Origin: Nannocystis sp. SCPEA4
Lineage (GTDB): Bacteria; Myxococcota_A; Polyangia; Nannocystales; Nannocystaceae
Length of the DNA stretch: 41,328 nt
Assembly (NCBI RefSeq): GCF_026626685.1
Contig: NZ_JAPNJX010000021.1
Span: forward strand, 1 to 41,328
Reading direction: 5' to 3'
Positions 15,993 through 41,328 of the stretch are shown one piece after another. Both the position numbers and the translations under genes were made by a program. Under the pieces are notes generated by a model. The model had not been told where the DNA came from. It did no database searches and saw only the letters and a program-made list of their open reading frames with translations. Within the stretch, counting starts at the first letter, position 1. Every line of letters begins with the position of its first letter.

Positions 15993-16895
15993 ATGAACGT
16001 CGCCGCGGCCGTCACCCACCTCCTTCCACTTCCGGCCGGCGGCGCCGTCGCCGCCCCTCTCGATGTCGGTGAGCTCCAGTCCGAGCTCGACATCCTCGCC
16101 GACGAGGCCCTGCGCGCGCGCCGCCAGGGCCTCTCGCTCCTGGCCGCGGTTCGTGACCCGCGTTTTCCCGCCCTCCAGAATTTCCACCAGGGCCTGCGCG
16201 ACGCCCTCTTCCTGGAGATTCCGGAAGAGCTTGAGCCGTGGGCCCGTCTCGCCGCCAACGGCGCCGGCAATCCGCCGCTGCAGCACACGCTCGTCGACTT
16301 CGCCCGCGGCGGCGAGGACGCCGACGATCGCCTCGGCGCCCTCCAGGCCGCGCTCGCCGAGCTTCTCGTGTTCGAGGCCATCCGCCTGCGCCTGTTCGTC
16401 ACCGCCTTCCGCGGCGAGGAGTTCGAGGTCGTCGGCGGTGAGGAGTCCGACGTCGACGCGATCGCCTACCGCGAGGTCGCCACGCTCCTGCACCGCCCCG
16501 AGCTCGCCGATCCCGACGTCCGTCCCCTCACTGTCCTGCTCGCGGCGGCCTCCGTCTCGCTCGCCCGCGACGCCCAGTCACGCGCCGAGGAGCTCCGCGA
16601 CACCGGCGAGGACACCCGCGAGGAGCTGCGCATGCGTGCCCGCCTCCGCGCCGCGCTCCGCGAGCTCCGCCTGCCCGAGGCCGTCCTGCTGGAGAACGCC
16701 CTCGCCGCCCTTCTCGGCGAGGAGCGGCGCGAGCTCGCCGATCTGCAGGCCGAGCGTCCCGTCGCGCTCGACGGCATGACCCGTCAGGCCATGGATCAGC
16801 GCGTGTCTCGCGGTCGGCGGGCTCTCGCCCATCCGCGGGCTGCCTGGCCGCGTCGTCGTCGGCCCGCTCTCTTCGATCTGCTCCAGCGCGCCTGA
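15993..16895 (+). CDS. hypothetical protein
   Basis: High GC3, acidic/Leu-rich, no recognisable motif. Confidence 0.45.
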   Translation: MNVAAAVTHLLPLPAGGAVAAPLDVGELQSELDILADEALRARRQGLSLLAAVRDPRFPALQNFHQGLRDALFLEIPEELEPWARLAANGAGNPPLQHTLVDFARGGEDADDRLGALQAALAELLVFEAIRLRLFVTAFRGEEFEVVGGEESDVDAIAYREVATLLHRPELADPDVRPLTVLLAAASVSLARDAQSRAEELRDTGEDTREELRMRARLRAALRELRLPEAVLLENALAALLGEERRELADLQAERPVALDGMTRQAMDQRVSRGRRALAHPRAAWPRRRRPALFDLLQRA

Positions 16896-16975
16896 GCCGC
16901 GGCTCTCGTCACGCATCCTTCGCGGCGGCCGACGGGTTCACCGCCCGCGCGACCCTGGTATGCTCCGCGCCCGCC

Positions 16976-17515
16976 ATGGCCGCCCCACCCGAACCCACAC
17001 GCGGACCGCGGATCGCCCTCGCAGCGGCGATCGCCGGTCTCAGCCTCGGCCTCGACCTTTGGAGCAAGGCCTGGGTCTGGAACAACCTCCGCGATCAGGC
17101 GGCCTGGAAGGTCAGCGACAAGCTGCTCCACTTCGACTTCGCCTGCAATCCCGGCTCGGCCTTCGGTTTCCTCAACGACGTCGACTGGGCCCGCTACTTC
17201 TTCATCGTCATCACCCTCGCGGCCGTCGGCTACCTCGTCCACCTCGCGCGGACCCTGCCGACCACGAGTCGCGCCGCCTTCATCGCCATCGGTCTGATCG
17301 CCGGCGGTGCGCTCGGCAACCTCCACGATCGCCTCGTCCGCGTCTACGCCGGCGACTACTGCGTGGTCGACTTCATCGTCGTCTACATCTGGCCCGGCAA
17401 GACCTGGCCCGCCTTCAACATCGCCGATGCCGTCCTCGTCGCCGGCGTCCTGTTGTTCCTCCTCGTGCTTCCACGCACCGAAGCCCCCACCAGTAACGCC
17501 TCCCCGTCGACCTGA
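16976..17515 (+). CDS. lspA: lipoprotein signal peptidase (signal peptidase II)
   Basis: Conserved NPGSAFGF and FNIADA motifs. 4 TM helices. Confidence 0.85.
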   Translation: MAAPPEPTRGPRIALAAAIAGLSLGLDLWSKAWVWNNLRDQAAWKVSDKLLHFDFACNPGSAFGFLNDVDWARYFFIVITLAAVGYLVHLARTLPTTSRAAFIAIGLIAGGALGNLHDRLVRVYAGDYCVVDFIVVYIWPGKTWPAFNIADAVLVAGVLLFLLVLPRTEAPTSNASPST

Positions 17516-17794
17516 GCGGGCCGGCGAAGACATCACGCCCGATCTCGCCCCCGCGGGAGGTCATGGGCGACGCTGCGGATCACCTCGTCCGCGACGACTG
17601 TCCCAGTGACGATCGATCTGCTTTTCGGCCGGACGCCGCCGCTCGAGGCCTGCGCCCGTCCGCGTCGCACGTCGCTCGGCGCGCCGCGGACCTCCTGAAC
17701 GCCCTCTGCGGGCTTTTCGCCGGGCTTCCGCCAGCGGCAGCCGCGCTTGCTCCGCCGGGCACCTCGGGTACACTGCCGAGGTTTCCGGCCGTTC

Positions 17795-18382
17795 ATGAGC
17801 GACACGCCAGCTTCGAATTCCGCCCGGCTCCGGCCGATCCTCGTCACCGCGTCTGCAGCCGCGGTGTTTCTGATCCTCGACCTCGTGACCAAGAGCTGGG
17901 CCTGGGACAACCTCCGGCCGCCGCACAAGTCGATCGCCGCGATCGGCAACTGGTTCCACTGGTCCTACAGCTTCAACACCGGCTCGGCCTTCGGCTTCCT
18001 GCGCGGCCAGGACTTCTCCCGCCCGATCTTCATCGTCGTCACCCTGATCACGGTGGTCTACATGGCCGCCCTGGTCCGGAAGCTGCCGACCGACCGCCTC
18101 TACGGCTTCTTCGCCATCGGCTGCATCATCGGCGGCGCGCTCGGCAACATGCACGACCGCCTGCTCCGCCAGGACACCGACGCGCTGGGTCAGCTCAACC
18201 ACGGCGTCGTCGACTTCATCCGCGTCTGCGCCCCGTGGAACCGCGGCCTGTGCTGGCCCAACTTCAACGTCGCCGACATCGCCCTCGTCGTCGGCGTCCT
18301 ATTGCTCATCCCCTACTTGATGTTTCACGCCCAACCGCCTGAAACCAAAGAAGATTCGCCGGCCGCCAAGGCCGTCGTCTAG
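17795..18382 (+). CDS. lspA: lipoprotein signal peptidase paralog (signal peptidase II)
   Basis: NTGSAFGF and FNVADIALVVG motifs. Start taken at MSDTPAS (ORF track 17747). Tandem to the first lspA. Confidence 0.85.
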   Translation: MSDTPASNSARLRPILVTASAAAVFLILDLVTKSWAWDNLRPPHKSIAAIGNWFHWSYSFNTGSAFGFLRGQDFSRPIFIVVTLITVVYMAALVRKLPTDRLYGFFAIGCIIGGALGNMHDRLLRQDTDALGQLNHGVVDFIRVCAPWNRGLCWPNFNVADIALVVGVLLLIPYLMFHAQPPETKEDSPAAKAVV

Positions 18383-30011: not shown

Positions 30012-30058
30012 CGCACATGTCCCGAGGACCCTGTCCCCGGGGCCATGCGCCGGGCTCA
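30012..30058. repeat. repeat-family copy between convergent genes (gcaCATGtcccgaggaccCTGTccccggggcCATGcgccgggctc)
   Basis: CATG 30016, CTGT 30031, CATG 30044, a 14/15-bp phase. Contains a CCCCGGGG palindrome. Sits at the ACP 3' end, so it may be a bidirectional terminator. Confidence 0.55.
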
Positions 30059-30322
30059 GGACGCGGCGGCCTGCTTCTCCTGCAGCGTCTTGTGCAGCAG
30101 GTCGACCAGCTCGTTGATGTTGGTCAGCTTGTTGAGCTCGGCGCGGGGGATCTTCACCTTGAGCTCGCGCATGCTGCAGGAGACGACCTCGACGATGTCG
30201 AGACTGTTGGCGCCGAGGTCCTTCATCGACTTCGCGGGGTCGACCTGGGCCGAATCGATCCCTTCGACGGTGTCCACGAGGTGGCGCTTGACGACGGCCA
30301 AGACATCATCGCGGGTGCTCAT
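30056..30322 (-). CDS. acyl carrier protein
   Basis: DLGANSLDIVEVV with the phosphopantetheine-attachment Ser. 88 aa. Confidence 0.85.
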   Translation of the reverse strand: MSTRDDVLAVVKRHLVDTVEGIDSAQVDPAKSMKDLGANSLDIVEVVSCSMRELKVKIPRAELNKLTNINELVDLLHKTLQEKQAAAS

Positions 30323-30385
30323 TCTCGGTTCTCCTTGGTGGGCGCGGGGCAGACGGCCCGCAGCGAATCTCGCAGGAAATGAAGC

Positions 30386-31201
30386 TCAAAAACTCAGCCC
30401 GTGGCGCTCGCGCGCAGAGAACAGGCGAACGACGTTGTCGGCGAAACCGAGCCCTCTGTCCAGTAGCAGAATCTGCCCCTTGACCCCGTCCATGAGGCCG
30501 CTGCAGAGGGCCAGCGCCGCGGCCGCGACCTCGTCGGGGTCGATGAACCAGCCCTCCGAGTAGTACTTCTTGCAGAACGGCACGAAGTCGGGCCCGAAGG
30601 TCGCTTCCAGCGATGCAGTCTCGACCGGGTTCGCGCGCAGGATGTTGATGCGAACATCCTCACTGAGCAGATCTGCCGTGAGGTAGCGACAGAAGGTCTC
30701 CATCACGGTCTTGCTCGCGGCGACGAAGTCATAGCCCGGCAGGAAGTACTCGGGCCCGCGCGACGACATTCCCACGGCGTACTTCGGCCAGCGGCCGAAG
30801 GTCTCGCGCACCGCCTGCAGGTAGCCGACGAACGGCCACGCGCTGTAGCCGAGGCTGCGCAGGAACGACTTCTTGTCGAGGTCCTCGTGCGACTTGCTGA
30901 CGTGGGCGAACGACACGTTGCTGATCAGCGCGAACACGGCGTCGTGGTCGCGGCGGATCAGCTGCATCAGCGCCTCGGTGTCCTCGTCCTGCGACGCGTC
31001 GGCCTCGACGATCGTCGGCGCCGGCGCGCCCGCGGCCTCGAACTGCGCGCGCAGCTCGTCCTCGTCGGCCGAGCCCCAGCGGTGCGTGAGGTACACGTGC
31101 GCGCCGTGCTTGCCGAACAGGAGGCCCGTCGCCAGGCCGATGCCCGCCGTCCCGCCGGTGACGATGACGGCCTTGCCCTTGAGATCGTTGCGGAGGATCA
31201 C
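30386..31201 (-). CDS. FabI-like enoyl-[ACP] reductase (SDR family)
   Basis: GKAVIVTGGTAGIGL Rossmann. Y-x6-K dyad (YDFVAASK) typical of FabI-type ER. GTG start with a GGAAGGGA Shine-Dalgarno. The ORF-track N-terminal extension is Arg-rich junk. Confidence 0.7.
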   Translation of the reverse strand: MILRNDLKGKAVIVTGGTAGIGLATGLLFGKHGAHVYLTHRWGSADEDELRAQFEAAGAPAPTIVEADASQDEDTEALMQLIRRDHDAVFALISNVSFAHVSKSHEDLDKKSFLRSLGYSAWPFVGYLQAVRETFGRWPKYAVGMSSRGPEYFLPGYDFVAASKTVMETFCRYLTADLLSEDVRINILRANPVETASLEATFGPDFVPFCKKYYSEGWFIDPDEVAAAALALCSGLMDGVKGQILLLDRGLGFADNVVRLFSARERHGLSF

Positions 31202-32013
31202 GACGCCGTCCCTTCCTTGTCGGTGCCGCCGACGAGGCGGGGCCCGAGCGTGGCGATGTTGTCGACGAACGCGGCCCCGCGGTCGAGCGTCAGCACCTGC
31301 CCGCCCATCGCGTCGAACAGGCCGCTGCACAGCGCGAGCGCGGTGTCGGCGACCTCGTCGACCGTGCACGCGAACTCAGGGAACTTGCCGGCCAGCGCGC
31401 GCTGCTCGGCGGCGAACATCTGCTCGTAGCTCTCGGTCATCACCTGGCGGGTGCGCAGCGCGTTGACGATGCAGCCGTGCTCGTACAGGTGCGTGCTCAT
31501 GTAGCGCACGAACGTCTCGAGCACCGCCTTGGCCACGGCCACGTAGTCGTAGCCCGGGTAGTGGGTGTCGGGGCCGTCGGACGACATCGCCAGGGCGTAG
31601 CGCGGGTAGCGACCGAACGCGGCGTGCAGCGCCTGCAGGTAGCCGACGAACGGCCAGCTCGAGTACTCGAGGCTCTTGTACAGCGCGCGCCGGCTGTGAC
31701 TCATCGGCCCGTCGCCGCGCTGGACCACGCACACGTTGCTGATGAAGGCCCACACGCCGTCGCACTCCTCCTTGAGGCGCGCCGTCAGCTTGTCGGTGTC
31801 CTCCTCGCGCGAGGCGTCGGCCTCGATCACCAGCGGCGCCGGGGCGCCCGCGGCGATGAACCGGGCCCGCAGCGCGTCCTCGTCGGCCGAGCCCCAGCGG
31901 TGCGTCAGCACCGTGCGCGCGCCGTGGCGACCGAACGCGAGCGCGCACGCGAGGCCGATGCCCCGCGTCCCGCCCGTGATCAAGACGACCCTGTCCTTCA
32001 AGTCATGCAGCAA
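31198..32013 (-). CDS. FabI-like enoyl-[ACP] reductase paralog (SDR family)
   Basis: About 45% identical to the downstream paralog (DRVVLITGGTRGIGL; YDYVAVAK). TTG start preceded by GGAGGAAGA. The first codons are rare and contain a CCTGTCC word. Confidence 0.65.
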   Translation of the reverse strand: MLHDLKDRVVLITGGTRGIGLACALAFGRHGARTVLTHRWGSADEDALRARFIAAGAPAPLVIEADASREEDTDKLTARLKEECDGVWAFISNVCVVQRGDGPMSHSRRALYKSLEYSSWPFVGYLQALHAAFGRYPRYALAMSSDGPDTHYPGYDYVAVAKAVLETFVRYMSTHLYEHGCIVNALRTRQVMTESYEQMFAAEQRALAGKFPEFACTVDEVADTALALCSGLFDAMGGQVLTLDRGAAFVDNIATLGPRLVGGTDKEGTAS

Positions 32014-32042
32014 GCGTCTTCCTCCGTTGCCTCGTCCGTGCG

Positions 32043-32816
32043 CTACCCGGAGCCCTTGGCGTAGTTCGTGCGGATCCGCGCCACCGTCTCCGGGTCGGCG
32101 AAGCATACCTCGTGCATCATCGACTCGACCGTGCGCGCCTCCTCGAACGCGCGCCGCCGCGGCAACGCCAGCGCACGCTTGAGCAATAGCAGCGCAGCGC
32201 GCGGCTTGTCGGCGATCCGCGCCGCCATGTCGATCGCCCGCGGCAGCACCTCGGCGCGCGGCACGACCGCGTTGACCTGGCCGCGCCCGGCCAGCTGCTC
32301 GCCGCGGAAGTACTGCCCGCCGAACAGCATCTCGGCCGCGACGTACTCGCCGAACGCGAACTGCAGCAGCCGCGTCGAGCCCATCCCCGGGGTGAAGCCC
32401 AGGTCCATGAAGTTGGCGCCGTAGCGGCTCTCGCGGGCCAGCACGACCATGTCGCAGGCCAGCCCGAACACGAGGCCGCCGCCGACCGCCGGCCCGGCCA
32501 TCGCCGCGACCGTCGGCACCGGCGCCTCGAGCAGCGCCCGCGTCAGCACCAGATCGTACGGCGCGATCGTGCCCTCGGCCAGGCCGAGCAGCACGTCGCG
32601 GTCGCCGCCGGCCGAGAACACCTCGGGCAGCCCCGCGATCACGCACACGCGCACGTCGGCGCGCCGGCCGAGGTCCTCGAGCGCCTGCGTCAGCGCGGCC
32701 GCGAACGCGCGGCTGAACGCGTTCTTGCCCGCCACGTCGCGCATGGTCAGCACCGCCAGCCCCTCGCGCTCGAGCGTCACGTCGACGAGGCTGTCTGTTG
32801 GGACATGCGCGTTCAT
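32043..32816 (-). CDS. enoyl-CoA hydratase/isomerase (crotonase) family protein, ECH of the beta-branching cassette
   Basis: Crotonase fold (VCVIAGLPEVFSAGGD; GPAVGGGLVFGLACD). ATG 32816. Confidence 0.8.
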   Translation of the reverse strand: MNAHVPTDSLVDVTLEREGLAVLTMRDVAGKNAFSRAFAAALTQALEDLGRRADVRVCVIAGLPEVFSAGGDRDVLLGLAEGTIAPYDLVLTRALLEAPVPTVAAMAGPAVGGGLVFGLACDMVVLARESRYGANFMDLGFTPGMGSTRLLQFAFGEYVAAEMLFGGQYFRGEQLAGRGQVNAVVPRAEVLPRAIDMAARIADKPRAALLLLKRALALPRRRAFEEARTVESMMHEVCFADPETVARIRTNYAKGSG

Positions 32817-32835
32817 TCCTGTCCTTTCAGCCTGG
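32791..32835. repeat. repeat-family copy spanning a start codon and RBS (ctgtctgttgggacatgcgcgttcattcctgtcctttcagcctgg)
   Basis: On the minus strand it reads GAAAGGACAGGA-ATG-AACGCGCATGTCCCAACAGACAG, that is RBS + MNAHVPTD. The CCTGTCCTTTC half matches the copy at 3024-3034. Confidence 0.55.
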
Positions 32836-33568
32836 CGAACCACGGCGGCGCTTGCCCGTCGGCCAGCAGGGCGGCCAGCGCCGCCCGCAGTTCGGGGTCC
32901 TCGAGGTCGGCCGCGGTCTGGGCCACCCCGCCCTGCCCGGCCGTCGCGGTGATCCGCTTGAGCGTCGCCACCGCCTGCGGGCGGGCCCGCAGCAGCGAGC
33001 GCATGAGCCCGCGCAGGGCCGTATTCGGCTCGTCCGCGACCACGTCGACGAGCCCCCACGGCTCGGCCTGGGCGGCCGTCACGACCTCGCCGGTAAGCGC
33101 CAGCCGCCGGGTCCGCCGCGCGCCGAGGCGCGCTTCGAGGGCCGGCAGGATCACCGCCGGCACCAGCCCGTAGCGCAGCTCCGGCAGCGCGAACGTGGCC
33201 GCGGGGCCGGCGATCACCAGGTCGCAGGCAGCAGCCAGCCCGACCCCGCCGCCGCTGGCCGCGCCGATGACCACCGCGATCGTCGCCAGCGGCGCGCTCG
33301 CCAGCAGCTCGAGACAGCCGGCGTAGCGCTCCATCGCCACGCGCATCGGCCCCGACCCGGTCTTCAGCGCCGCCGCCAGGTCCATGCCGGCGCAGAACTC
33401 CGCCGCCTCGCTGGCGATCACCAGCGCGCGCGCCGACGCGGCGACCGCCTGCTCGACGGCGTCGGCCAGCGCCGCGATCCCGTCGGGGTCGAGAGCGACA
33501 TGTCCCCCGGGACCTGCCCCGAGGTACAGCCGCCAGATCAGCTCGCCCTCTTCGCAGCGGACGCGCAT
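32813..33568 (-). CDS. enoyl-CoA hydratase/isomerase (crotonase) family protein, second ECH
   Basis: Crotonase fold (FCAGMDL; GAASGGGVGLAAACD). 4-nt overlap with the downstream ECH. The N-terminus contains a repeat copy (GAGPGGHVALDPDG). Confidence 0.75.
   Translation of the reverse strand: MRVRCEEGELIWRLYLGAGPGGHVALDPDGIAALADAVEQAVAASARALVIASEAAEFCAGMDLAAALKTGSGPMRVAMERYAGCLELLASAPLATIAVVIGAASGGGVGLAAACDLVIAGPAATFALPELRYGLVPAVILPALEARLGARRTRRLALTGEVVTAAQAEPWGLVDVVADEPNTALRGLMRSLLRARPQAVATLKRITATAGQGGVAQTAADLEDPELRAALAALLADGQAPPWFARLKGQE
33491..33525. repeat. repeat-family copy inside the CDS (gagagcgacatgtcccccgggacctgccccgaggt)
   Basis: CATG 33499, CTGC 33514. GGGACATGTCCCCC palindromic core. 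Confidence 0.5.
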
Positions 33569-33604
33569 GGCTCAACTCCTGGGCCGAGGGGCGGACGGGC
33601 GCGG

Positions 33605-33630
33605 CATAACATGTCCCTCAGGACAGGCGG
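33605..33630. repeat. repeat-family copy in the 49-bp gap between HMGS and ECH (cataacatgtccctcaggacaggcgg)
   Basis: TGTCCC-TCA-GGACA inverted repeat. The GGACAGG also serves as a Shine-Dalgarno-like sequence for the ECH gene. Confidence 0.5.
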
Positions 33631-34859
33631 TACTCCCGCTGCCAGCCGCGCACCGCGTCGAGGACGAGCCGGCCCTTGCCGGCGTAGGCGCGCTCGTACA
33701 GCCCGCGCAGCCCCGACTGGTCGACCTCGTAGTCGCTCTGATCGATGTAGCCGGCCCGCAGCCGCTCGAGCGCCTCGTACTCGGCGATCGTCAGCGGCAT
33801 GCGGCGGTCGAGGCCGGCGGCGATCCGCTGGCTGGCGACCCGCTCGCGCGCGCGCTCGCCGACGGTCGTGCGGTAGAACTCGGCGCACGAGCCCGAGCCG
33901 TAGGAGAAGATCGACACCTGGTCGCCGGCGTGCAGCTCGGGGTCGGCGTCGATGAGCCCGAGCATGGCGATGAAGGTCGCCGACGTGTAGGTGCCGCCGA
34001 AGCGCGAGTTGTAGCGCAGCGCCGCCTTCGACTTGCGCTCGAAGTGGGCCTTCGCCTCGCGCAGCGACATCTCGTGCGGCCCGCGGCGCAGCAGCGCCCG
34101 GTGGGCGCGGAACGTCATGCCGCCGAACGGCACGTGGTAGATGTGGCGGGCGAACGCGGCGTCGTAGTCGACCATGCCCGAGCGAGCGACGTAGTGGTCG
34201 TACGCGCCCTCGAGCGCGTCGAGGTAGCCGTACAGGCTGGTGTCGGCGTGGCCGACCTCCTTGGTCGACGTCGGCCGGTAGGTGTCGAAGATCTCCTGCG
34301 TCCAGTAGCCGCAGGTGTCGAGGTCGATCTCGAGGACGTCCGGCTCGGCGCTGACCAGCATCGCCGTGGCCGCCGCGCCGAGCACGTACTCCCACGGCTG
34401 CCCGAGGTGCACGCGGCTCTGGTCGGTGCACACCACCAGCGCCTTCTTGCCCGGGGCCGCGCCCGACGCGACCCAGTGGGCCGCCATCATCAGGCCGCCG
34501 GTGCCGCCGTAGCAGGCGTGCTTGGTCTCGAAGTTGCGGCAGTTGGCCGTGAGCCCGCAGTAGCGCTGCACGTAGGTCGAGATCGGCTTGCCGAAGTCGA
34601 CCGACGACTCGGTGCCGACGATCACGAGCTCGATGTCCTTGCGGTCCTCGGGCCCGACGATCTGCAGCGCGGCGTTGACCGCCATCGTCACCGGGTCCTC
34701 CCACGCGGGGTTCAGCGACCGCTCGCTCACCCACAGCTCCTCGAGCGGGTGGCGCGGATCGTGGTCGCGCGCCTCTGCGAGCAGCTTCATGTCGAGCGAG
34801 AGCGTGCACGGGTAGGCCGTGATCCGCTCGATGCCGACGCGCGGCCGGTGGTGCGCCAT
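33618..34859 (-). CDS. hydroxymethylglutaryl-CoA/ACP synthase family (HMGS, PksG/TaC-like beta-branching enzyme)
   Basis: HMGS active-site region NFETKHACYGGTGGLMMAAHWV (catalytic Cys). 413 aa. Thiolase-like fold. Confidence 0.85.
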   Translation of the reverse strand: MAHHRPRVGIERITAYPCTLSLDMKLLAEARDHDPRHPLEELWVSERSLNPAWEDPVTMAVNAALQIVGPEDRKDIELVIVGTESSVDFGKPISTYVQRYCGLTANCRNFETKHACYGGTGGLMMAAHWVASGAAPGKKALVVCTDQSRVHLGQPWEYVLGAAATAMLVSAEPDVLEIDLDTCGYWTQEIFDTYRPTSTKEVGHADTSLYGYLDALEGAYDHYVARSGMVDYDAAFARHIYHVPFGGMTFRAHRALLRRGPHEMSLREAKAHFERKSKAALRYNSRFGGTYTSATFIAMLGLIDADPELHAGDQVSIFSYGSGSCAEFYRTTVGERARERVASQRIAAGLDRRMPLTIAEYEALERLRAGYIDQSDYEVDQSGLRGLYERAYAGKGRLVLDAVRGWQREYRLS

Positions 34860-34872
34860 CGTCTTCCCCCTC

Positions 34873-35616
34873 TCAGTACGTCCAGTCGAGGCCGCCCGTG
34901 ACCGGCACGACCTGACCGTTGATGAAGCTGCCGCCGTCGGCGAGGAACAGCACCACGGCGGCGAGCTCGTCGAGCGTGCCCATGCGGCCCTTGGGCATCG
35001 GGCAGTACTGCTGCCAGTAGTCCTTGGCCGCCTGCGGCATGGTCTCGCGCGTCATGTCGGTGTCGAAGAAGCCGGGCACGACGACGTTGGCGGTGATGCC
35101 CTTGCGCCCGTACTCCTTGGCGAGCGACTGGGTGAAGCCGTGCAGCCCGGCCTTGCTGGCGGCGTAGTTGGCCTGGCCGGCCGCACCGTTGTGCTGGATC
35201 GACGAGATGTTGACGATCCGGCCGAAGCGCGCCGCCAGCATCTGCGACAGGAACGCGCGCACGACGTAGAACGGCCCGTGGAGGTTGGTGGCGATCACGT
35301 CGTGCCACTCCTCGTCGGACATCGAGACCACCAGGTTGGCGCGGTTGATGCCGGCGCAGTTGACCACGACCTCGACGCTGTCGAAATCGTTCAGCACCTC
35401 GTCGGCGACCTCGGCGACCCGCTCGGCGCGGCTGACGTCGAGCGCGTAGCCCTTGCACTTCGCGCCCGGGCGCAGCGCCGCGGCCTCGGCCTCGATCTTG
35501 CGCGCGGCCTCGTCGTTGCTGCGGTAGGCGAACGCGACGTCGTGACCGGCGCGCACCGCCGCGAGCACGATCCCGGCGCCGATCCCCCGCGAACCTCCGG
35601 TGACGAAGAAGTTCAT
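34873..35616 (-). CDS. fabG: 3-oxoacyl-[ACP] reductase
   Basis: MNFFVTGGSRGIGAGIV; NISSIQHNGAAGQANYAASKAG (S-Y-K triad); 247 aa classical SDR. Confidence 0.85.
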   Translation of the reverse strand: MNFFVTGGSRGIGAGIVLAAVRAGHDVAFAYRSNDEAARKIEAEAAALRPGAKCKGYALDVSRAERVAEVADEVLNDFDSVEVVVNCAGINRANLVVSMSDEEWHDVIATNLHGPFYVVRAFLSQMLAARFGRIVNISSIQHNGAAGQANYAASKAGLHGFTQSLAKEYGRKGITANVVVPGFFDTDMTRETMPQAAKDYWQQYCPMPKGRMGTLDELAAVVLFLADGGSFINGQVVPVTGGLDWTY

Positions 35617-35624
35617 GGCGCGGC

Positions 35625-36935
35625 TCACAGGGCGTTCGGGTCCCACCGGCGGTACAGCGCGCAGCAATTGAGGCCGCCGAAGCCGAACGAGTTCTTGACC
35701 ATGAGGTTGATGCGGTGCTCGACCGCCTTGTTGGCGCACACGTCGACGTCGACCTCGGGGTCGAGCTCGTCGATGTTGATCGACGGGTGCAGCACGCCGC
35801 CGCGCATCTGCAGCAGCGCCGCGACCGTCTCGACCGCCGGCGCCGACCAGCAGGTGTGGCCGAGCATCGACTTCGGCGCGTTGATCTTGAGCCGCTTGGC
35901 GTGGTCGCCGAACACCTTGCGGATCGCGTTGAGCTCCGACAGGTCGCCGAGCGGCGTGCTGGTCGCGTGGGCGCAGATGAAGTCGATCTCCTCGGGCCGC
36001 ACCTGCGCGCGCCGCAGCAGGCGCTCGAGCGTGCGCGCCTGGCCCTCGGTCGACGGCGACGGCAGGTGACAGCCGTCCGACGTCGAGGTGCAGCCGAGCA
36101 CCTCGGCGTAGATCGTCGCGCCGCGCTTGAGCGCGTGGCCGAGCTCCTCGAGCACCAGCGCGCCCGCCCCGTGCGACGGCACGAAGCCCTCGCGGCGGGA
36201 GTCGTAGGGCCGGCTGGCCAGCTCGGGCGTGTCGTTGAAGCTTTCGAAGGTGATGGCGCCGAGCAGCGCCATCGCGTGCACGCCCATCTGCGAGAAGTCG
36301 AGCACCGCGCCGACCACCATCGCCATGTCGTGGTCGTGGTGGCGGATCTCGTCGATCGCGTTGCGCAGGGCCACGTTGGCGCTGGCGCACGCGCCACCCA
36401 GCGTGTAGCAGGAGCCCTTCCAGCCCAGCATCTCGCTCACCGATCCGGCGTGGTCGGTGTCGAGCATGTGCAGCGCCGCCATCGAGTCGATGTAGTCGGG
36501 GTCCTCGGTCTGGAAGGTGACGTAGTTGTCGGCGAAGTAGCGCTCGTTGAGGTTGTGGCCGCCGACCAGCACCGCGCAGCGCGTCGGGTCCGCGACCTCG
36601 ACCATGCCGGCGTCGCGCCAGGCGTCGGCGGCGCACAGCACCGACAGCGACGTCGAGAACGGCGCCTTGTTGCACAGGAGGCGCGCCCGCTTGTGCACCT
36701 CGGCCGGCAGCACGTCGCGCAGGCGCGCGAGCTTGGCCTTGACGTCGTACTCCGACAGATCGCCGCCGATCTTCGAGTAGACGCCCTCGTTGTTGTGCCA
36801 CTTCCAGCGCGTGATGGCGGACTTGCCGGCGACGAGGTTGGCGTAGAACGTGTCGAGATCGTCGCCGAGCGGCGTGTTGATACCGAGGCCGGTGATGACC
36901 ACGCGGCGGGGCGATTGTGCCTGCGATGAGACCAT
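35625..36935 (-). CDS. beta-ketoacyl-[ACP] synthase (FabF/FabB-like; active-site Cys retained)
   Basis: GGACASANVAL (Cys), CAHATSTPLGD (His), SMLGHTCWSAP (His). 436 aa. Confidence 0.85.
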   Translation of the reverse strand: MVSSQAQSPRRVVITGLGINTPLGDDLDTFYANLVAGKSAITRWKWHNNEGVYSKIGGDLSEYDVKAKLARLRDVLPAEVHKRARLLCNKAPFSTSLSVLCAADAWRDAGMVEVADPTRCAVLVGGHNLNERYFADNYVTFQTEDPDYIDSMAALHMLDTDHAGSVSEMLGWKGSCYTLGGACASANVALRNAIDEIRHHDHDMAMVVGAVLDFSQMGVHAMALLGAITFESFNDTPELASRPYDSRREGFVPSHGAGALVLEELGHALKRGATIYAEVLGCTSTSDGCHLPSPSTEGQARTLERLLRRAQVRPEEIDFICAHATSTPLGDLSELNAIRKVFGDHAKRLKINAPKSMLGHTCWSAPAVETVAALLQMRGGVLHPSINIDELDPEVDVDVCANKAVEHRINLMVKNSFGFGGLNCCALYRRWDPNAL

Positions 36936-36951
36936 GCGTGCTCTCTGGGGG

Positions 36952-37506
36952 TCAGTCCATCAGGTAGACCTCGAACACCGCGAGGGCCTGGACCTCCTCG
37001 CCGCGGAGGGCCTGACCGACGCAGGTCGAGACGTAGTCGCTGTGCTCGAGCGAGCGGGCGAGCAGCGTCAGCCGGTCGCCCGGGCGGACGCCGCCCTGGA
37101 ACAGGGCGTGGTGGACCTTGAGCAGCCGCAGCCGCGCCGGAGCGTCGGTCGCGTCGATGCGGGCTGTCCCTTTGGCCATGAGGTGCAAGAGACAGATCCC
37201 GAGCTGCCCGATCGCCTCGACCAGCAGCACCCCCGGGTACACCGGGTCGCCGGGGAAGTGGCCGGCGAACACCGCGTCGCCGGCGTCGATCGTGCGCGCG
37301 CCCCGGATCATCCCCGGCTCCTCGGCGCTGCGCGGCAGCTCGACCGCGTCGATCGCGTCGACGAACAGGAACGGGTCGCGGTGCGGCAGCATCCGCTCGA
37401 TGTCCGCGCGGCCGAACTCCACCCGCGTGGAGCCCTCCCCGGGCACGAACACCGGCCGGCGCCGGTGCTGCTTGATCAGCGTGTCGAGGCCGCTCAGCTC
37501 GTCCAC
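36952..37506 (-). CDS. fabZ: 3-hydroxyacyl-[ACP] dehydratase (hotdog fold)
   Basis: LPHRDPFLFVDAI...GHFPGDPVYPGVLLVEAIGQ. GTG start with an AGGAGG Shine-Dalgarno, overlapping the stop of the upstream acyltransferase. The ORF-track N-terminal extension is discarded. Confidence 0.8.
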   Translation of the reverse strand: MDELSGLDTLIKQHRRRPVFVPGEGSTRVEFGRADIERMLPHRDPFLFVDAIDAVELPRSAEEPGMIRGARTIDAGDAVFAGHFPGDPVYPGVLLVEAIGQLGICLLHLMAKGTARIDATDAPARLRLLKVHHALFQGGVRPGDRLTLLARSLEHSDYVSTCVGQALRGEEVQALAVFEVYLMD

Positions 37507-38504
37507 GACGCCTCCTGAGCCTTGTCCTTGCGCGTCGTCGGCGGCAGGTGCTGGCGCAGCGCCGCGAGCACGCCGGCGAGGTGCCCGGGGGCGTCGTCGC
37601 GGCTGTCGGTGGCGTACTTCGGGCGCGTCGACCACTTGCGGTCGAGCAGGTTGTGCAGCACCTGGCGCGGACCGACCTCGACGAACACCGCGCCCGGGTG
37701 GCGCTCGGCGACGCGGTCGATCGACTTGCGCCACAGCACCGGCGTGTGCACGTGCGCCTCGAGCAGGTCGACGAAGTCGGTGCGCGTCGGCGCCGGCACG
37801 AACTCGCCGCGGCGGTTCGGCAGGTACGGCAGCCGCGGCGCGCGGAAGCGGGCCCGCTGCAGGTGCGGCCGCAGAGCCACGCCGACCGGCTCGAACAGCG
37901 ACGAGTGCATCGGCACCTGGCGCTCGATGATCGTCGGCACCACGAAGTGCTCGTCCTCGAGCAGCGTCACCGCGGCCTCGACCGCGGCGGCGTCGCCCGA
38001 CAGCACGTGCTGCTTCGGCGAGTTGAGGTTGACGATCTCGAGCACGCCGAGGCCCTGGCCGCGGATCTGCTCGACCACCTCCTCGAGCGTCTCGAGGTCG
38101 AGCGGCTGGACCGAGGCCATCATCCCGCGCGGGCCGGCGTCGTAGGCCTCGCCGCGGGCCTGGACCAGGCGCAGCGCCTCCGGCAGCTCGAGCGCGCCGA
38201 TGTGCACGAGGTGGTTGTACTCGCCGAGCGACAGCCCCAGCGACAGCTCGGCGTCGACGCCCTCGGCCTGCAGCAGGCTGAGCATCATGTGATTGGCGAC
38301 GAACACCCCGACCTGGACGTCGACGTTGCGATCGAACGCCGTCGGGTTGTCCTCGCTGGTGTGGGCGTTGAGGTCGCGGCCGAGGACGTCGCTGCACACC
38401 GCCAGCACCTCGGCCGCGCGGCGATGCAGCCGGGCCAGCTTGCCGAGCATCCCCGGGTAGCGCGAGCTCTGCCCTGGGAACATGAACACCAGCGTCGTCA
38501 TCAT
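37494..38504 (-). CDS. ACP S-malonyltransferase-like acyltransferase (FabD family)
   Basis: FPGQSS and GLSLGEY (active-site Ser) motifs. 336 aa. Confidence 0.8.
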   Translation of the reverse strand: MMTTLVFMFPGQSSRYPGMLGKLARLHRRAAEVLAVCSDVLGRDLNAHTSEDNPTAFDRNVDVQVGVFVANHMMLSLLQAEGVDAELSLGLSLGEYNHLVHIGALELPEALRLVQARGEAYDAGPRGMMASVQPLDLETLEEVVEQIRGQGLGVLEIVNLNSPKQHVLSGDAAAVEAAVTLLEDEHFVVPTIIERQVPMHSSLFEPVGVALRPHLQRARFRAPRLPYLPNRRGEFVPAPTRTDFVDLLEAHVHTPVLWRKSIDRVAERHPGAVFVEVGPRQVLHNLLDRKWSTRPKYATDSRDDAPGHLAGVLAALRQHLPPTTRKDKAQEASWTS

Positions 38505-38526
38505 CGTGCCCCCTGCCCTGTCCCGC

Positions 38527-39786
38527 TCACTCGGCCGCCTCGTCGACGCGGCCGCGGATGATCGTGTCCTCGAGGATCTCGAGCGCGCGGTCGAGGTCGG
38601 CGCGCGTGTGCGCGGCCGTGATCGCGACGCGGAAGCGCAGGCCGTCCTCCGGCACCGAGGGGTAGTCGACCGGCGCGAGGAACAGCCCGCGGCGGTGCAA
38701 CGTGCGCGTCAACTCATACAGCCGTCGGCGATCCGATCCGACCATGATCGGCACCACCTGACTCGAACCGTGCCCGAGGTCGAGCCCGATCTGCAGCGCC
38801 TTCTCCCGGAAGTAGCGGGTGTTGGCCCACAGCGTCTCGCGCAGCGAATTGTCGCGCGTCGCCACCTCGAGCGCCTTGCGCAGGCCGGCCACCACCGCCG
38901 GCGGCAGCGCGCAGCTGAAGCCGTAGGCGTTGATGTAGTAGCGCATGTAGTGCAGCAGCGCGCGCGGCCCGACGGTGAAGCCGCCGCAGCCGGCGAACGC
39001 CTTGCTGAAGGTCGCGAACTGCAGGCCGATCGACTTCTCGGCGCCGTAGTGCTCGACCACGCCGCGGCCGTGCGCGCCGTACACGAGGATCGAGTGGGCC
39101 TCGTCGATCAGCACGCCGACGCCGTGCTTCTCGGCCACCGGCAGGAGCCGCGGCAGATCGGCCGTGTCACCGTCCATCGAGTACACGCCCTCGACGACCA
39201 CCAGGCGGCGCGCGCCCTCGCTGTCGGTCAGCGCCTGGTCGAGCGAGTCGGGATCGTTGTGGTCGAAGAACACCAGCTTGGCGCGCGACAGCTTGACGCC
39301 GTCGATCGAGCACAGGTGCGTCTTGGCGTCGAGGATGGCGACGTCGCCCTTGCGCAGCACGCCCGCCAGCGTGCCCATGCCGCCGGCGAAGCCGCTGTTG
39401 AAGAGGATGCAGTCCTCCTGTCCGAGGAACGCCGCGAGCTCGCGCTCGAGCCCGCGGTGCAGATCGGACAGTCCCGACAGCAACGGCGAACCACAAGCCC
39501 CGGTGCCGTAGGTGCGCAGGGCCTCCTGCGCCGCCTCGACGACCTCGGGGTGCGTAGCGAGCCCGAGGTAGTTGTACGAGCTGAGGTTGATGACGTCGCT
39601 GCGCTCGCCGGCCCGCTCGATCGCCATGCGCGGTGCGACGGCCCCCAACATGTGGGGTTCGTACATCGACATCGCCCACGAGCCGGCTTCGGCCCACTGC
39701 ACGAAGCCCTCGGGTGGACAGAGCGGATCGTCGCTGTCCGAGAAGTAGAAGTCGGCCAAACTGTGCTCGGCTTCGCGGCCCATCAC
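38527..39786 (-). CDS. alpha-oxoamine synthase family PLP enzyme (serine palmitoyltransferase / 8-amino-7-oxononanoate synthase / KBL-like)
   Basis: PLP-lysine motif FATFSKAFAGCGGF. SMDGD and HGxGxxE motifs. About 70-aa N-terminal extension. AGGGGAG Shine-Dalgarno before GTG/ATG 39786/39783. First gene of the operon. Confidence 0.8.
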   Translation of the reverse strand: MMGREAEHSLADFYFSDSDDPLCPPEGFVQWAEAGSWAMSMYEPHMLGAVAPRMAIERAGERSDVINLSSYNYLGLATHPEVVEAAQEALRTYGTGACGSPLLSGLSDLHRGLERELAAFLGQEDCILFNSGFAGGMGTLAGVLRKGDVAILDAKTHLCSIDGVKLSRAKLVFFDHNDPDSLDQALTDSEGARRLVVVEGVYSMDGDTADLPRLLPVAEKHGVGVLIDEAHSILVYGAHGRGVVEHYGAEKSIGLQFATFSKAFAGCGGFTVGPRALLHYMRYYINAYGFSCALPPAVVAGLRKALEVATRDNSLRETLWANTRYFREKALQIGLDLGHGSSQVVPIMVGSDRRRLYELTRTLHRRGLFLAPVDYPSVPEDGLRFRVAITAAHTRADLDRALEILEDTIIRGRVDEAAE

Positions 39787-39976
39787 GGAACTCCCCTGTA
39801 CGTCGGGGCCCGGCGTAGTTACAGCGAAAGTATCGCGGCTGTCACGGAAATTTTGTTCGCCAGCGGTTCCCCTGCGCTGTCGAGCACGTGTAGCGCGCGG
39901 TGTCGCGTCGCTGCGTGTGTTGCAGATTGCATCGCGCTGGCCTTATCGCCGAACTTTTTAAACCGATGCATAAGTT

Positions 39977-40017: not shown

Positions 40018-40239
40018 GCTAGTTAATCTCGAGTGCAACAATCTCGCAGGCTCAGCGAGCGACCTCGACGGTCTGCTCGCGCGTGCGCTCGCGTGTGGAC
40101 TGCGAAACGCGTCGCACACTGTCTGAATGTCACGCGGGCGCGGACAGCCGACCGCAGAGCGTCGAACGCGTGGCGAAGCTCTCGGGTCCGATGTCACAGC
40201 CTTGACGTCGCACCGACCGGGTGGTTATCCCCCGCGTCG

Positions 40240-41328
40240 TGAGCACGAAGGTGGTCGTCACCGGCGCGAACGGGTTCATCGGCAGTCACCTCGTCGATCG
40301 CTTGCTCGCCGAGGGCCACGCGGTGCGGGCGATGGTCCGCGCCGGGGCCAACCTCGACAACCTCGCCGACGCGTTCGCGCGGCCGTCCGGGCGGCCCGAG
40401 CTGGCCCACGCCACGCTCGCCGACGTCGACGCGATGACCACGGCGTTCGACGGCGCCGACGTCGTCTATCACGTGGCCGGACTGACCGCCGCGTTCACGC
40501 GCGAGGAGTTCGCGCGGGCCAACGCCGTCGGGGTCGCCAACGTGCTCGCGGCGATCCGCAACGCGCCTGGTCGGCCGCGGCGGCTGGTCTACGTGTCGTC
40601 GCTGATGGCCGCCGGCCCCTCGCACCCCGAGGTCGCGCGCCGCGAACACCACGCCCCGCGCGTCGGCTTCACCCTCTACGGCGACAGCAAGCTCGACGGC
40701 GAGAAGCTGGTCTTCGCGGCCGCGCGCGCCGGCGACGTCGAGGCCGTGATCGTGCGCCCGCCCGCGGTCTACGGCCCGCGCGACGCCGACATGCTGCAGA
40801 TGATCCGCTCGGCCAAATTCGGCGTGATCGCCCAGCCCGGCCTGCGCCCGGCGTGGATGTCGTTCATCCACGCGCTCGACCTCGTCGACGGCATCGCCCG
40901 CGCCGGCGCCCGTGGGCGCCCGATCCCCCGCGACGGCGACCACGTGCTCGACGATCGAGGCTGTCCCTTCGACCATGTCCCCGAGGACCCGTCGCACCCG
41001 GTCGGCGCAGGCATCTACTACTTCACCGACGGCCAGCGCAGCACCGTCGTCGGCTTCGGCCGGGCCGCCGCCGCCGCACTCGGCCGCCGCGCGCTCGCGC
41101 TGCCGATGCCGCGCGCGGCCGTGTGGACCGTCGCCGGCATCAACCACGCGATCGGCAAGCTCCGCGGCAAGGCCCCGGCGCTCACCCTCGACAAGGCCCG
41201 CGGCAGCATGGCGCCGGGCTGGTGGTGCGACGACAGCAAGGCGGTCCGCGAGCTCGACTACGCCCCGCAGTGGCCGCTCGCGCGGGGGCTCGAGCACACC
41301 GTCGCGTGGGCGCGCGCTGCAGGCCGCC
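40240..41328 (+). CDS. NAD-dependent epimerase/dehydratase family reductase (partial, 3' end off the window)
   Basis: GTG start. VVVTGANGFIGSHLV Rossmann. YGDSK catalytic dyad. Not in the ORF track (no stop in the window). The minus-strand ORF 40194..41297 is its antisense artefact. Confidence 0.7.
40961..40992. repeat. repeat-family copy embedded in-frame in the epimerase CDS (ctgtcccttcgaccatgtccccgaggacccgt)
   Basis: Encodes CPFDHVPEDP within an apparent ~25-aa insertion between the conserved ...GIARAGARG and GAGIYYFTDG segments. Confidence 0.6.

Follow-up and report, generated by a model that had tools for sequence, protein, structure and literature searches.

Two complete lspA genes in tandem

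The DNA analysed here is a stretch of 41,328 nucleotides (nt) from Nannocystis sp. SCPEA4 (assembly GCF_026626685.1, contig NZ_JAPNJX010000021.1, positions 1 to 41,328 of the forward strand), referred to in its entirety as the window, and it carries two genes for lipoprotein signal peptidase (signal peptidase II, LspA), lspA-a and lspA-b, lying head-to-tail on one strand. A preliminary description made from the sequence alone had already recognized two complete tandem paralogs, and the coordinates, the lengths of 179 and 195 amino acids (aa), the orientation, the spacing of about 280 nt and the identity of about 40% that it gave are all correct, the measured values for the last two being 279 nt and 44% (BLASTP over 176 columns, E 5e-37). 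The pair probably represents two functional housekeeping signal peptidase II isozymes that arose by a duplication at the level of the Nannocystaceae, once linked to the lgt gene, and that are analogous to the lspA1/lspA2 pair of Myxococcus xanthus. The features of the pair are as follows, loci of other genomes being denoted by L numbers here and below.

16976..17515, + strand: lspA-a, signal peptidase II, 179 aa, ATG start (open reading frame list, PF01252, TIGR00077)
17516..17794, no strand: non-coding spacer of 279 nt between the stop of lspA-a and the ATG of lspA-b
17733..17794, + strand: conserved 62-nt block directly 5′ of lspA-b (comparison with L003 and Nannocystis pusilla)
17795..18382, + strand: lspA-b, signal peptidase II, 195 aa from the ATG at 17795 (PF01252, TIGR00077)

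The open reading frame (ORF) listed for lspA-b is somewhat longer, covering 17747..18382 (+) with a TTG start and 211 aa; the length of 195 aa adopted here is the one annotated in the N. pusilla orthologue. Both proteins match the PF01252 family (Peptidase_A8, cutoff 25 bits), lspA-a with E 1.7e-30 and 106.5 bits over model positions 2-138 of 142 and lspA-b with E 2e-31 and 109.6 bits over positions 2-142 of 142, and both score above the 73.95-bit cutoff of the lspA equivalog model TIGR00077, with 83.2 and 74.8 bits, respectively. Exact-sequence look-ups of the two window proteins gave no match, and their context was taken from close homologues, including a protein 97% identical to lspA-b that is named by NCBI 'signal peptidase II [Nannocystis pusilla]' (P0241). 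Three antisense ORFs of 138-246 aa that overlap the lspA genes and the spacer, at 16796-17536 (-), 17533-17949 (-) and 17561-18202 (-), are rejected as high-GC artefacts because such frames are typical of DNA of 70% GC and no gene is called there in related assemblies.

Catalytic residues and predicted fold

The NxGxAFG and FNxAD motifs that the preliminary description had read in both copies are indeed found, as N58-P-G60-S-A-F-G and F147-N-I-A-D151 in lspA-a and as N61-T-G63-S-A-F-G and F157-N-V-A-D161 in lspA-b. Members of the LspA family have 14 highly conserved residues, including the catalytic dyad D118/D136 in Staphylococcus aureus numbering (PMC6952399). Placed on the window proteins by way of that published list and of alignments to the Pseudomonas aeruginosa LspA structure 5dir, 14 of 14 are present in lspA-a (D27, K31, N58, G60, G111, N115, D118, R119, V130, D132, F147, N148, A150, D151) and 14 of 14 in lspA-b (D29, K33, N61, G63, G114, N118, D121, R122, V138, D140, F157, N158, A160, D161), and the corresponding columns are invariant in alignments of 23-31 homologues. 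The alignments of both copies to 5dir span almost the full length, with a phmmer E of 2e-14 for lspA-a. In AlphaFold models, both copies are predicted to adopt an LspA-like fold with the four long helices and the beta strands (beta-cradle) that the family requires. The model of lspA-a has a mean predicted local distance difference test score (pLDDT) of 90.2 and template modelling (TM) scores of 0.76-0.89 to 5dir, and that of lspA-b has a pLDDT of 82.6 and TM scores of 0.64-0.86. Foldseek searches of the PDB with both models returned LspA chains only (5dir, 6ryo, 6ryp), with E <= 1e-7 and TM scores up to 0.89.

The window copies thus share fold, conserved residues and Asp dyad with the canonical enzymes of P. 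aeruginosa (5dir), S. aureus (6ryo/6ryp) and Escherichia coli; they differ from them in that those organisms have one copy per genome whereas two stand in tandem here, and sequence identity to the solved LspA structures is 28-35%. The single E. coli gene lies in an operon with ileS. Both window copies are predicted to be enzymatically active, and each would be a membrane aspartyl protease of four helices that removes the signal peptides of diacylglyceryl-modified prolipoproteins by cleavage just before the lipobox cysteine, with D132/D151 as the putative catalytic Asp pair in copy a and D140/D161 in copy b.

Integrity of both copies and the intergenic spacer

Whether one of the two might be a pseudogene had been raised as a possible objection in the preliminary description, and the answer is that neither copy is one, because internal stops are absent, the coding GC content at third codon positions (GC3) is 0.89 in lspA-a and 0.92 in lspA-b, and the ratio of nonsynonymous to synonymous substitution rates (dN/dS), determined by comparison with N. 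pusilla and two assemblies that are more distant, lies within 0.10-0.38 (0.10-0.27 for lspA-a and 0.27-0.38 for lspA-b). Both copies are under purifying selection. These values bear on the idea that one gene is a decaying duplicate, either a cryptic pseudogene or an unexpressed gene. The 279-nt spacer could cut copy b off from an upstream promoter, and in a relative, an uncultured Myxococcales metagenome-assembled genome (MAG; L006 5250-5858), the upstream lspA is split over two frames, as a result either of a real frameshift or of a MAG assembly error. Set against this are the intact frames of both genes in the window and in L085, L001, L002 and L003, the high GC3, dN/dS values well below 1, the invariant catalytic residues and the presence of a conserved block in front of copy b, as well as the possible artefactual origin of the split in L006, and decay of either copy is therefore extremely unlikely.

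The spacer contains no frame with a coding GC3 signature and varies considerably among relatives. In N. pusilla (L085) the gap between the called genes is 277 nt long and about 90% identical with indels, and the distance is 61 nt in L003 and 4 nt in L001. Among the genomes seen, the first 217 nt or so of the spacer are found in the N. pusilla lineage only. The 62-nt block next to lspA-b is nearly invariant in comparison with N. pusilla and 87% identical to L003, in which the remainder of the spacer has no counterpart. Within the block, TTGCTC (17747-17752) and TACACT (17769-17774) are separated by 16 nt and match the consensus at 7 of 12 hexamer positions; they may constitute a weak promoter-like pair, and the block a putative internal promoter of lspA-b. 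A consensus promoter scan reported no promoter, and it passed over the TTGCTC/TACACT block because only 7 of the 12 hexamer positions match. A terminator scan returned a single terminator-like hairpin, located inside lspA-b and within chance expectation.

Several other origins of the spacer were considered and rejected. It has no Rfam match at E <= 1 that would mark it as an RNA element and no second copy in the window or in 88 loci that would mark it as a mobile or repeated element. Descent from lgt is not indicated by tblastn, which gave noise only (best E 0.15), and the spacer has no similarity to a 280-nt gap that follows lspA-b in L003.

Sequence differences between the two copies

The two proteins differ in a limited set of conserved features. 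Next to the active site, lspA-a keeps the general consensus WP-A-FN, as in P. aeruginosa, and lspA-b has WP-N-FN in place of this near-universal motif beside the catalytic FNxAD (window 18260-18274, residues 156-160). In lspA-b, S also replaces A two residues before the asparagine of N-x-G. The signature positions of lspA-b are S59, T86, K96, I112, N156 and L171, together with a C-terminal signature LIPYLMFHA of which the motif LIPYL..H (P-x-L-x-x-H) is kept, and its periplasmic loop (residues 126-153) is 11 residues longer than in lspA-a. In Nannocystis, this enlarged loop of lspA-b holds two cysteines, between which a disulfide could form. Copy b thus reads as the more derived form and copy a as the general consensus, and the differences are compatible with some specialisation.

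A stronger version of this idea is that copy b has been neofunctionalised and acts on special substrates, such as lipoproteins with an unusual lipobox or lipidated peptides, rather than in general lipoprotein maturation. The separate clade formed by b-type sequences (see below), the conserved signature positions and longer loop, the dN/dS somewhat above that of copy a and the promoter block that copy b may have to itself are all in keeping with such a role. It is nonetheless unlikely, as all catalytic and substrate-binding consensus residues are retained in copy b, its predicted fold is that of a canonical LspA and its vicinity contains no gene for a dedicated substrate; LspA1 and LspA2 of M. 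xanthus, by analogy, are treated as redundant housekeeping enzymes (PMC8689077). For the favoured pair of housekeeping isozymes, in which copy a keeps the consensus and copy b is derived, the most likely state would be that the two are partly redundant and to some extent share out the work on a large lipoproteome. Substrate specialisation for the large lipoproteome, which had been suggested in the preliminary description, is in this respect possible.

Genomic neighbourhood and conservation within Nannocystis

Gene order around the pair was taken from Pfam scans of the window and from the gene calls of four related assemblies. The closest of these is N. pusilla GCA_020073745.1 (L085), which has a nucleotide identity to the window of about 96.6% (96-97% over 20 kb) and the same arrangement. 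On the 5′ side of the pair lie, in order, mdh, sucC, sucD, a gene for a DUF4215 protein, an acyltransferase gene, an epimerase gene, two hypothetical genes, a further epimerase gene and a gene for a hypothetical protein of 300 aa. On the 3′ side, the opposite strand carries a chorismate-binding (pabB-like) gene, pgsA (CDP-alcohol phosphatidyltransferase) and an SLT transglycosylase gene, beyond which follow a nadB-like gene, carD, a macro-domain gene, a DUF4388/PatA_N gene and a cobalamin adenosyltransferase gene. The surroundings of the pair are a housekeeping neighbourhood, and its flanks contain no polyketide synthase (PKS), nonribosomal peptide synthetase (NRPS) or transporter gene.

The pair and its neighbours are the same in L085 and in the Logan assemblies L001, L002 and L003, all four of which have the order 300-aa hypothetical, lspA-a, lspA-b, chorismate-binding, pgsA, SLT, nadB. 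The tandem pair is also present in a Nannocystis MAG (L029). Neither the 41-kb window nor the Nannocystis loci L001, L003, L029 and L085 yielded an lgt gene in tblastn searches with Lgt queries from Myxococcus and Nannocystaceae. The gene directly upstream of the pair shares its conservation and is described by the following entry.

15993-16895, + strand: conserved 300-aa hypothetical protein, directly 5′ of lspA-a with an 80-nt gap, no Pfam match

This gene keeps its position in every Nannocystis locus inspected, evolves under strong purifying selection (dN/dS 0.03-0.19) and may be co-transcribed with the lspA pair.

A lipid operon downstream and the question of self-resistance

The preliminary description had placed an operon containing an HMG-CoA-synthase-like (HMGS) gene about 12 kb from the pair. 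Pfam scans locate it at a distance of 11.7 kb downstream, with syntenic housekeeping genes in between.

30,056-39,942, - strand: 11-gene type-II lipid operon with an HMGS beta-branching cassette (Pfam scans)
40206-41328, + strand: divergent NAD-dependent reductase gene adjoining the HMGS operon

The operon encodes an AONS/SPT-like aminotransferase, an acyltransferase (AT), a FabA/ApeI-like dehydratase (DH), a ketosynthase (KS), a ketoreductase (KR), the HMG-CoA-synthase-like protein, two enoyl-CoA hydratase (ECH) proteins, two short-chain dehydrogenase/reductases (SDR) and an acyl carrier protein (ACP), that is, discrete type-II enzymes, and no PKS/NRPS megasynthase was found in the 41-kb window. 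The same operon is found in two Nannocystis genomes (L086, L087), and its predicted product may be a beta-branched amino lipid or a sphingoid-like lipid. HMGS cassettes are also used in the biosynthesis of myxovirescin. Nothing ties the operon to LspA.

The proximity of the two systems is of interest for the other explanation offered in the preliminary description, resistance to an endogenous metabolite that targets LspA. Here one copy would be insensitive to the inhibitor or overexpressed and would shield the producer from its own compound, perhaps with the involvement of the HMGS operon. There is precedent in the globomycin producer and, as proposed, in lspA3/lspA4 of M. xanthus (PMC8689077, PMC8048626), and both the beta-branching cassette 12 kb away and the altered residues of copy b beside the FNxAD motif could be accommodated. 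On the other side, the pair lies outside any biosynthetic cluster, and about 12 kb of syntenic housekeeping genes (pabB-like, pgsA, SLT, nadB, carD, macro, cobalamin adenosyltransferase) precede an HMGS operon that consists of 11 discrete type-II genes in a window in which no megasynthase was found. All 14 of the conserved residues, which are those that contact the inhibitor, are kept in both copies, and the pair is conserved across Nannocystis and the Nannocystaceae, well beyond one species and unlike a strain-specific resistance gene. To our knowledge, there is no sequence signature by which resistance to LspA inhibitors can be recognized. Self-resistance is thus quite improbable, and the pair is better regarded as an ordinary one because of its family-wide conservation, its housekeeping neighbours and its resemblance to lspA1/lspA2.

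Phylogeny and relation to the lspA genes of Myxococcus and Sorangium

Among the best 120 matches of each copy, the named ones belong to Nannocystis, Nannocystaceae, Enhygromyxa and 'Myxococcales bacterium', and no Myxococcus-named protein occurs among those of either window copy. In a tree of 255 sequences, all 227 homologues returned for either copy fall into one clade with both window copies, and this clade splits into a b-type clade of 82 sequences, which are cluster representatives, and an a-side of 147. Many a-type and b-type matches come from contigs of equal length in Nannocystaceae assemblies, which suggests that they lie together there as well. Trees were built by neighbour-joining from Kimura distances with 200 bootstraps over 150-170 columns, with LspA1 and LspA2 representing M. 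xanthus, and gave the following support.

All Nannocystaceae-type sequences, both copies: bootstrap 100%
b-type clade: bootstrap 96-98%
Myxococcus LspA1 with LspA2: bootstrap 68-79%
Sorangium/Polyangiaceae pairs as their own clade: bootstrap 82-98%

Neither the Myxococcus nor the Sorangium pairs fall within the Nannocystaceae clade that holds the two window copies. Because both window copies belong to a clade of Nannocystaceae only and LspA1 groups with LspA2, the window copies would be analogues rather than one-to-one orthologues of LspA1 and LspA2, a conclusion held with moderate confidence. Similarly, the duplications may be lineage-specific or have been homogenised within lineages, which is again a moderate inference because the deep branches are weak and the method is simple. 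When Myxococcus LspA1 served as the query of a protein search, the proteins returned were LspA1 orthologues only, at identities of at least 67%.

M. xanthus has four lspA genes, two of which lie in the myxovirescin cluster (PMC8689077, PMC8048626). The other two, lspA1 and lspA2, are in tandem in the lgt operon and are proposed to be housekeeping genes (Xiao & Wall 2014, as cited in PMC8689077); they correspond to MXAN_0368 and MXAN_0369, and single mutants develop normally (bioRxiv 10.64898/2026.08.28.747804). The preliminary description had given the number and the cluster location of the M. xanthus genes correctly and had drawn its comparison with lspA3/lspA4, missing the tandem housekeeping pair with lgt, which is confirmed here on the M. 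xanthus chromosome (L084) and in Myxococcus sp. Y35 (L018). By analogy, lspA1/lspA2 and not the resistance-linked lspA3/lspA4 appear to be the closest counterpart of the window pair. Both pairs are head-to-tail on one strand in a myxobacterium, outside an antibiotic cluster, intact and in possession of the full catalytic consensus, and both can be related to lgt, directly in Myxococcus and in only some of the Nannocystaceae (L004, L005). They differ in a long insertion behind the first helix, which is present in the Myxococcus proteins and missing from those of the window, in the gap between the genes (33 nt in L084, 279 nt in the window) and in that the window pair does not share an operon with lgt. 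With lspA3/lspA4 the window genes have in common that they are extra LspA paralogues of the same enzyme family in a myxobacterium; lspA3 and lspA4, however, are inside a large PKS/NRPS cluster and tied to resistance to the antibiotic or its regulation, whereas the window pair is set among housekeeping genes and conserved family-wide.

The pairs of the Sorangium/Polyangiaceae group (L010, L014, L025) are likewise tandem lspA-lspA arrangements on one strand in Myxococcota; in them, lgt follows the copies. Unlike the window pair, they form the separate clade listed above with two sub-clades of their own, and they would therefore stem from a separate duplication or from lineage-specific homogenisation.

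Gene order around lgt and the origin of the pair

The order lspA-lspA-lgt is found in the two Myxococcus loci (L084, L018), in Sorangium (L010, L014) and in a Myxococcales MAG (L025), and the order lspA-lgt-lspA in the Nannocystaceae MAGs L004 (5980-7982) and L005 (4510-6540); in MAG87, too, lgt stands beside the copies or separates them. The gene is thus between the copies in L004 and L005 and downstream of them in Myxococcus, Sorangium and the MAG L025, and Nannocystis has none near its pair, so that repeated rearrangement of the lipoprotein-maturation operon is evident. The window pair would have been born by duplication inside the Nannocystaceae lineage, probably within the lipoprotein-maturation operon because some Nannocystaceae still have the order lspA-lgt-lspA, and would have been kept and vertically inherited since.

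The interpretation of lspA-a and lspA-b as housekeeping isozymes is carried by the observed integrity of the genes, their catalytic residues, their predicted folds, the purifying selection on both, the conservation of the pair and its synteny, and the clade structure, together with the excess of two-copy loci in Myxococcota, the connection to lgt and the published account of lspA1/lspA2. Several points weigh against it. The absence of lgt near the pair in Nannocystis makes the operon link an ancestral one only, and copy b is altered beside the active site (WP-N-FN, and S in place of A ahead of N-x-G). The phylogeny is a neighbour-joining one on 150-170 columns with weak deep nodes, and a relation to LspA3/LspA4 is excluded only indirectly, through the lack of Myxococcus-named proteins among the best 120 matches. 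Furthermore, the survey for lspA copies or a cluster for an LspA inhibitor covers the 41-kb window, and the case for these particular proteins is built on sequence and predicted structure.

Tandem lspA genes across Myxococcota and other bacteria

A profile scan with one genome per species provided a sample of 80 lspA loci. A second lspA lies within a few kb at 8 of 11 Myxococcota loci and at 3 of 69 others (Fisher p 8e-7), with the qualification that some single-copy loci are near contig ends, so that the number of singles may be a slight overestimate. In Myxococcota, a second lspA in tandem is the norm and appears to be part of core lipoprotein maturation. The preliminary description had considered that the copies might be housekeeping duplicates present in all Myxococcales. 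Their character as conserved housekeeping duplicates is largely borne out; the duplication, however, appears to be Nannocystaceae-specific and not shared with Myxococcus, and the Myxococcota loci sampled are not all two-copy.

The pair matters little on its own. The data indicate that duplication of lspA alone should not be counted as a target-duplication resistance signal in the mining of myxobacterial genomes (e.g., ARTS-style). One modest addition is that the pairs of the Nannocystaceae, the Sorangium group and Myxococcus seem to go back to separate duplications, often beside lgt; should this be confirmed, selection for two LspA isoforms would appear to have acted repeatedly in bacteria whose lipoproteomes are very large. 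A more far-reaching proposal is that tandem lspA genes were fixed independently at least three times in Myxococcota (Nannocystaceae, Sorangium/Polyangiaceae and Myxococcaceae), each time beside lgt, under recurrent selection of these predators for two isoforms of which the b-type could be an inhibitor-tolerant back-up or a lipoproteome specialist. As a whole this is speculative and rather unlikely; if true, a b-type back-up would protect against LspA inhibitors, such as myxovirescin, from competing myxobacteria.

Tandem lspA genes outside the Myxococcota were observed at three loci (L058 5935-7025, L075 5293-6372, L072 5498-6450). The genomes concerned are a Gemmatimonadales MAG, a bacterium clustering with that MAG (both Gemmatimonadota-like) and a Pseudobdellovibrionaceae MAG.

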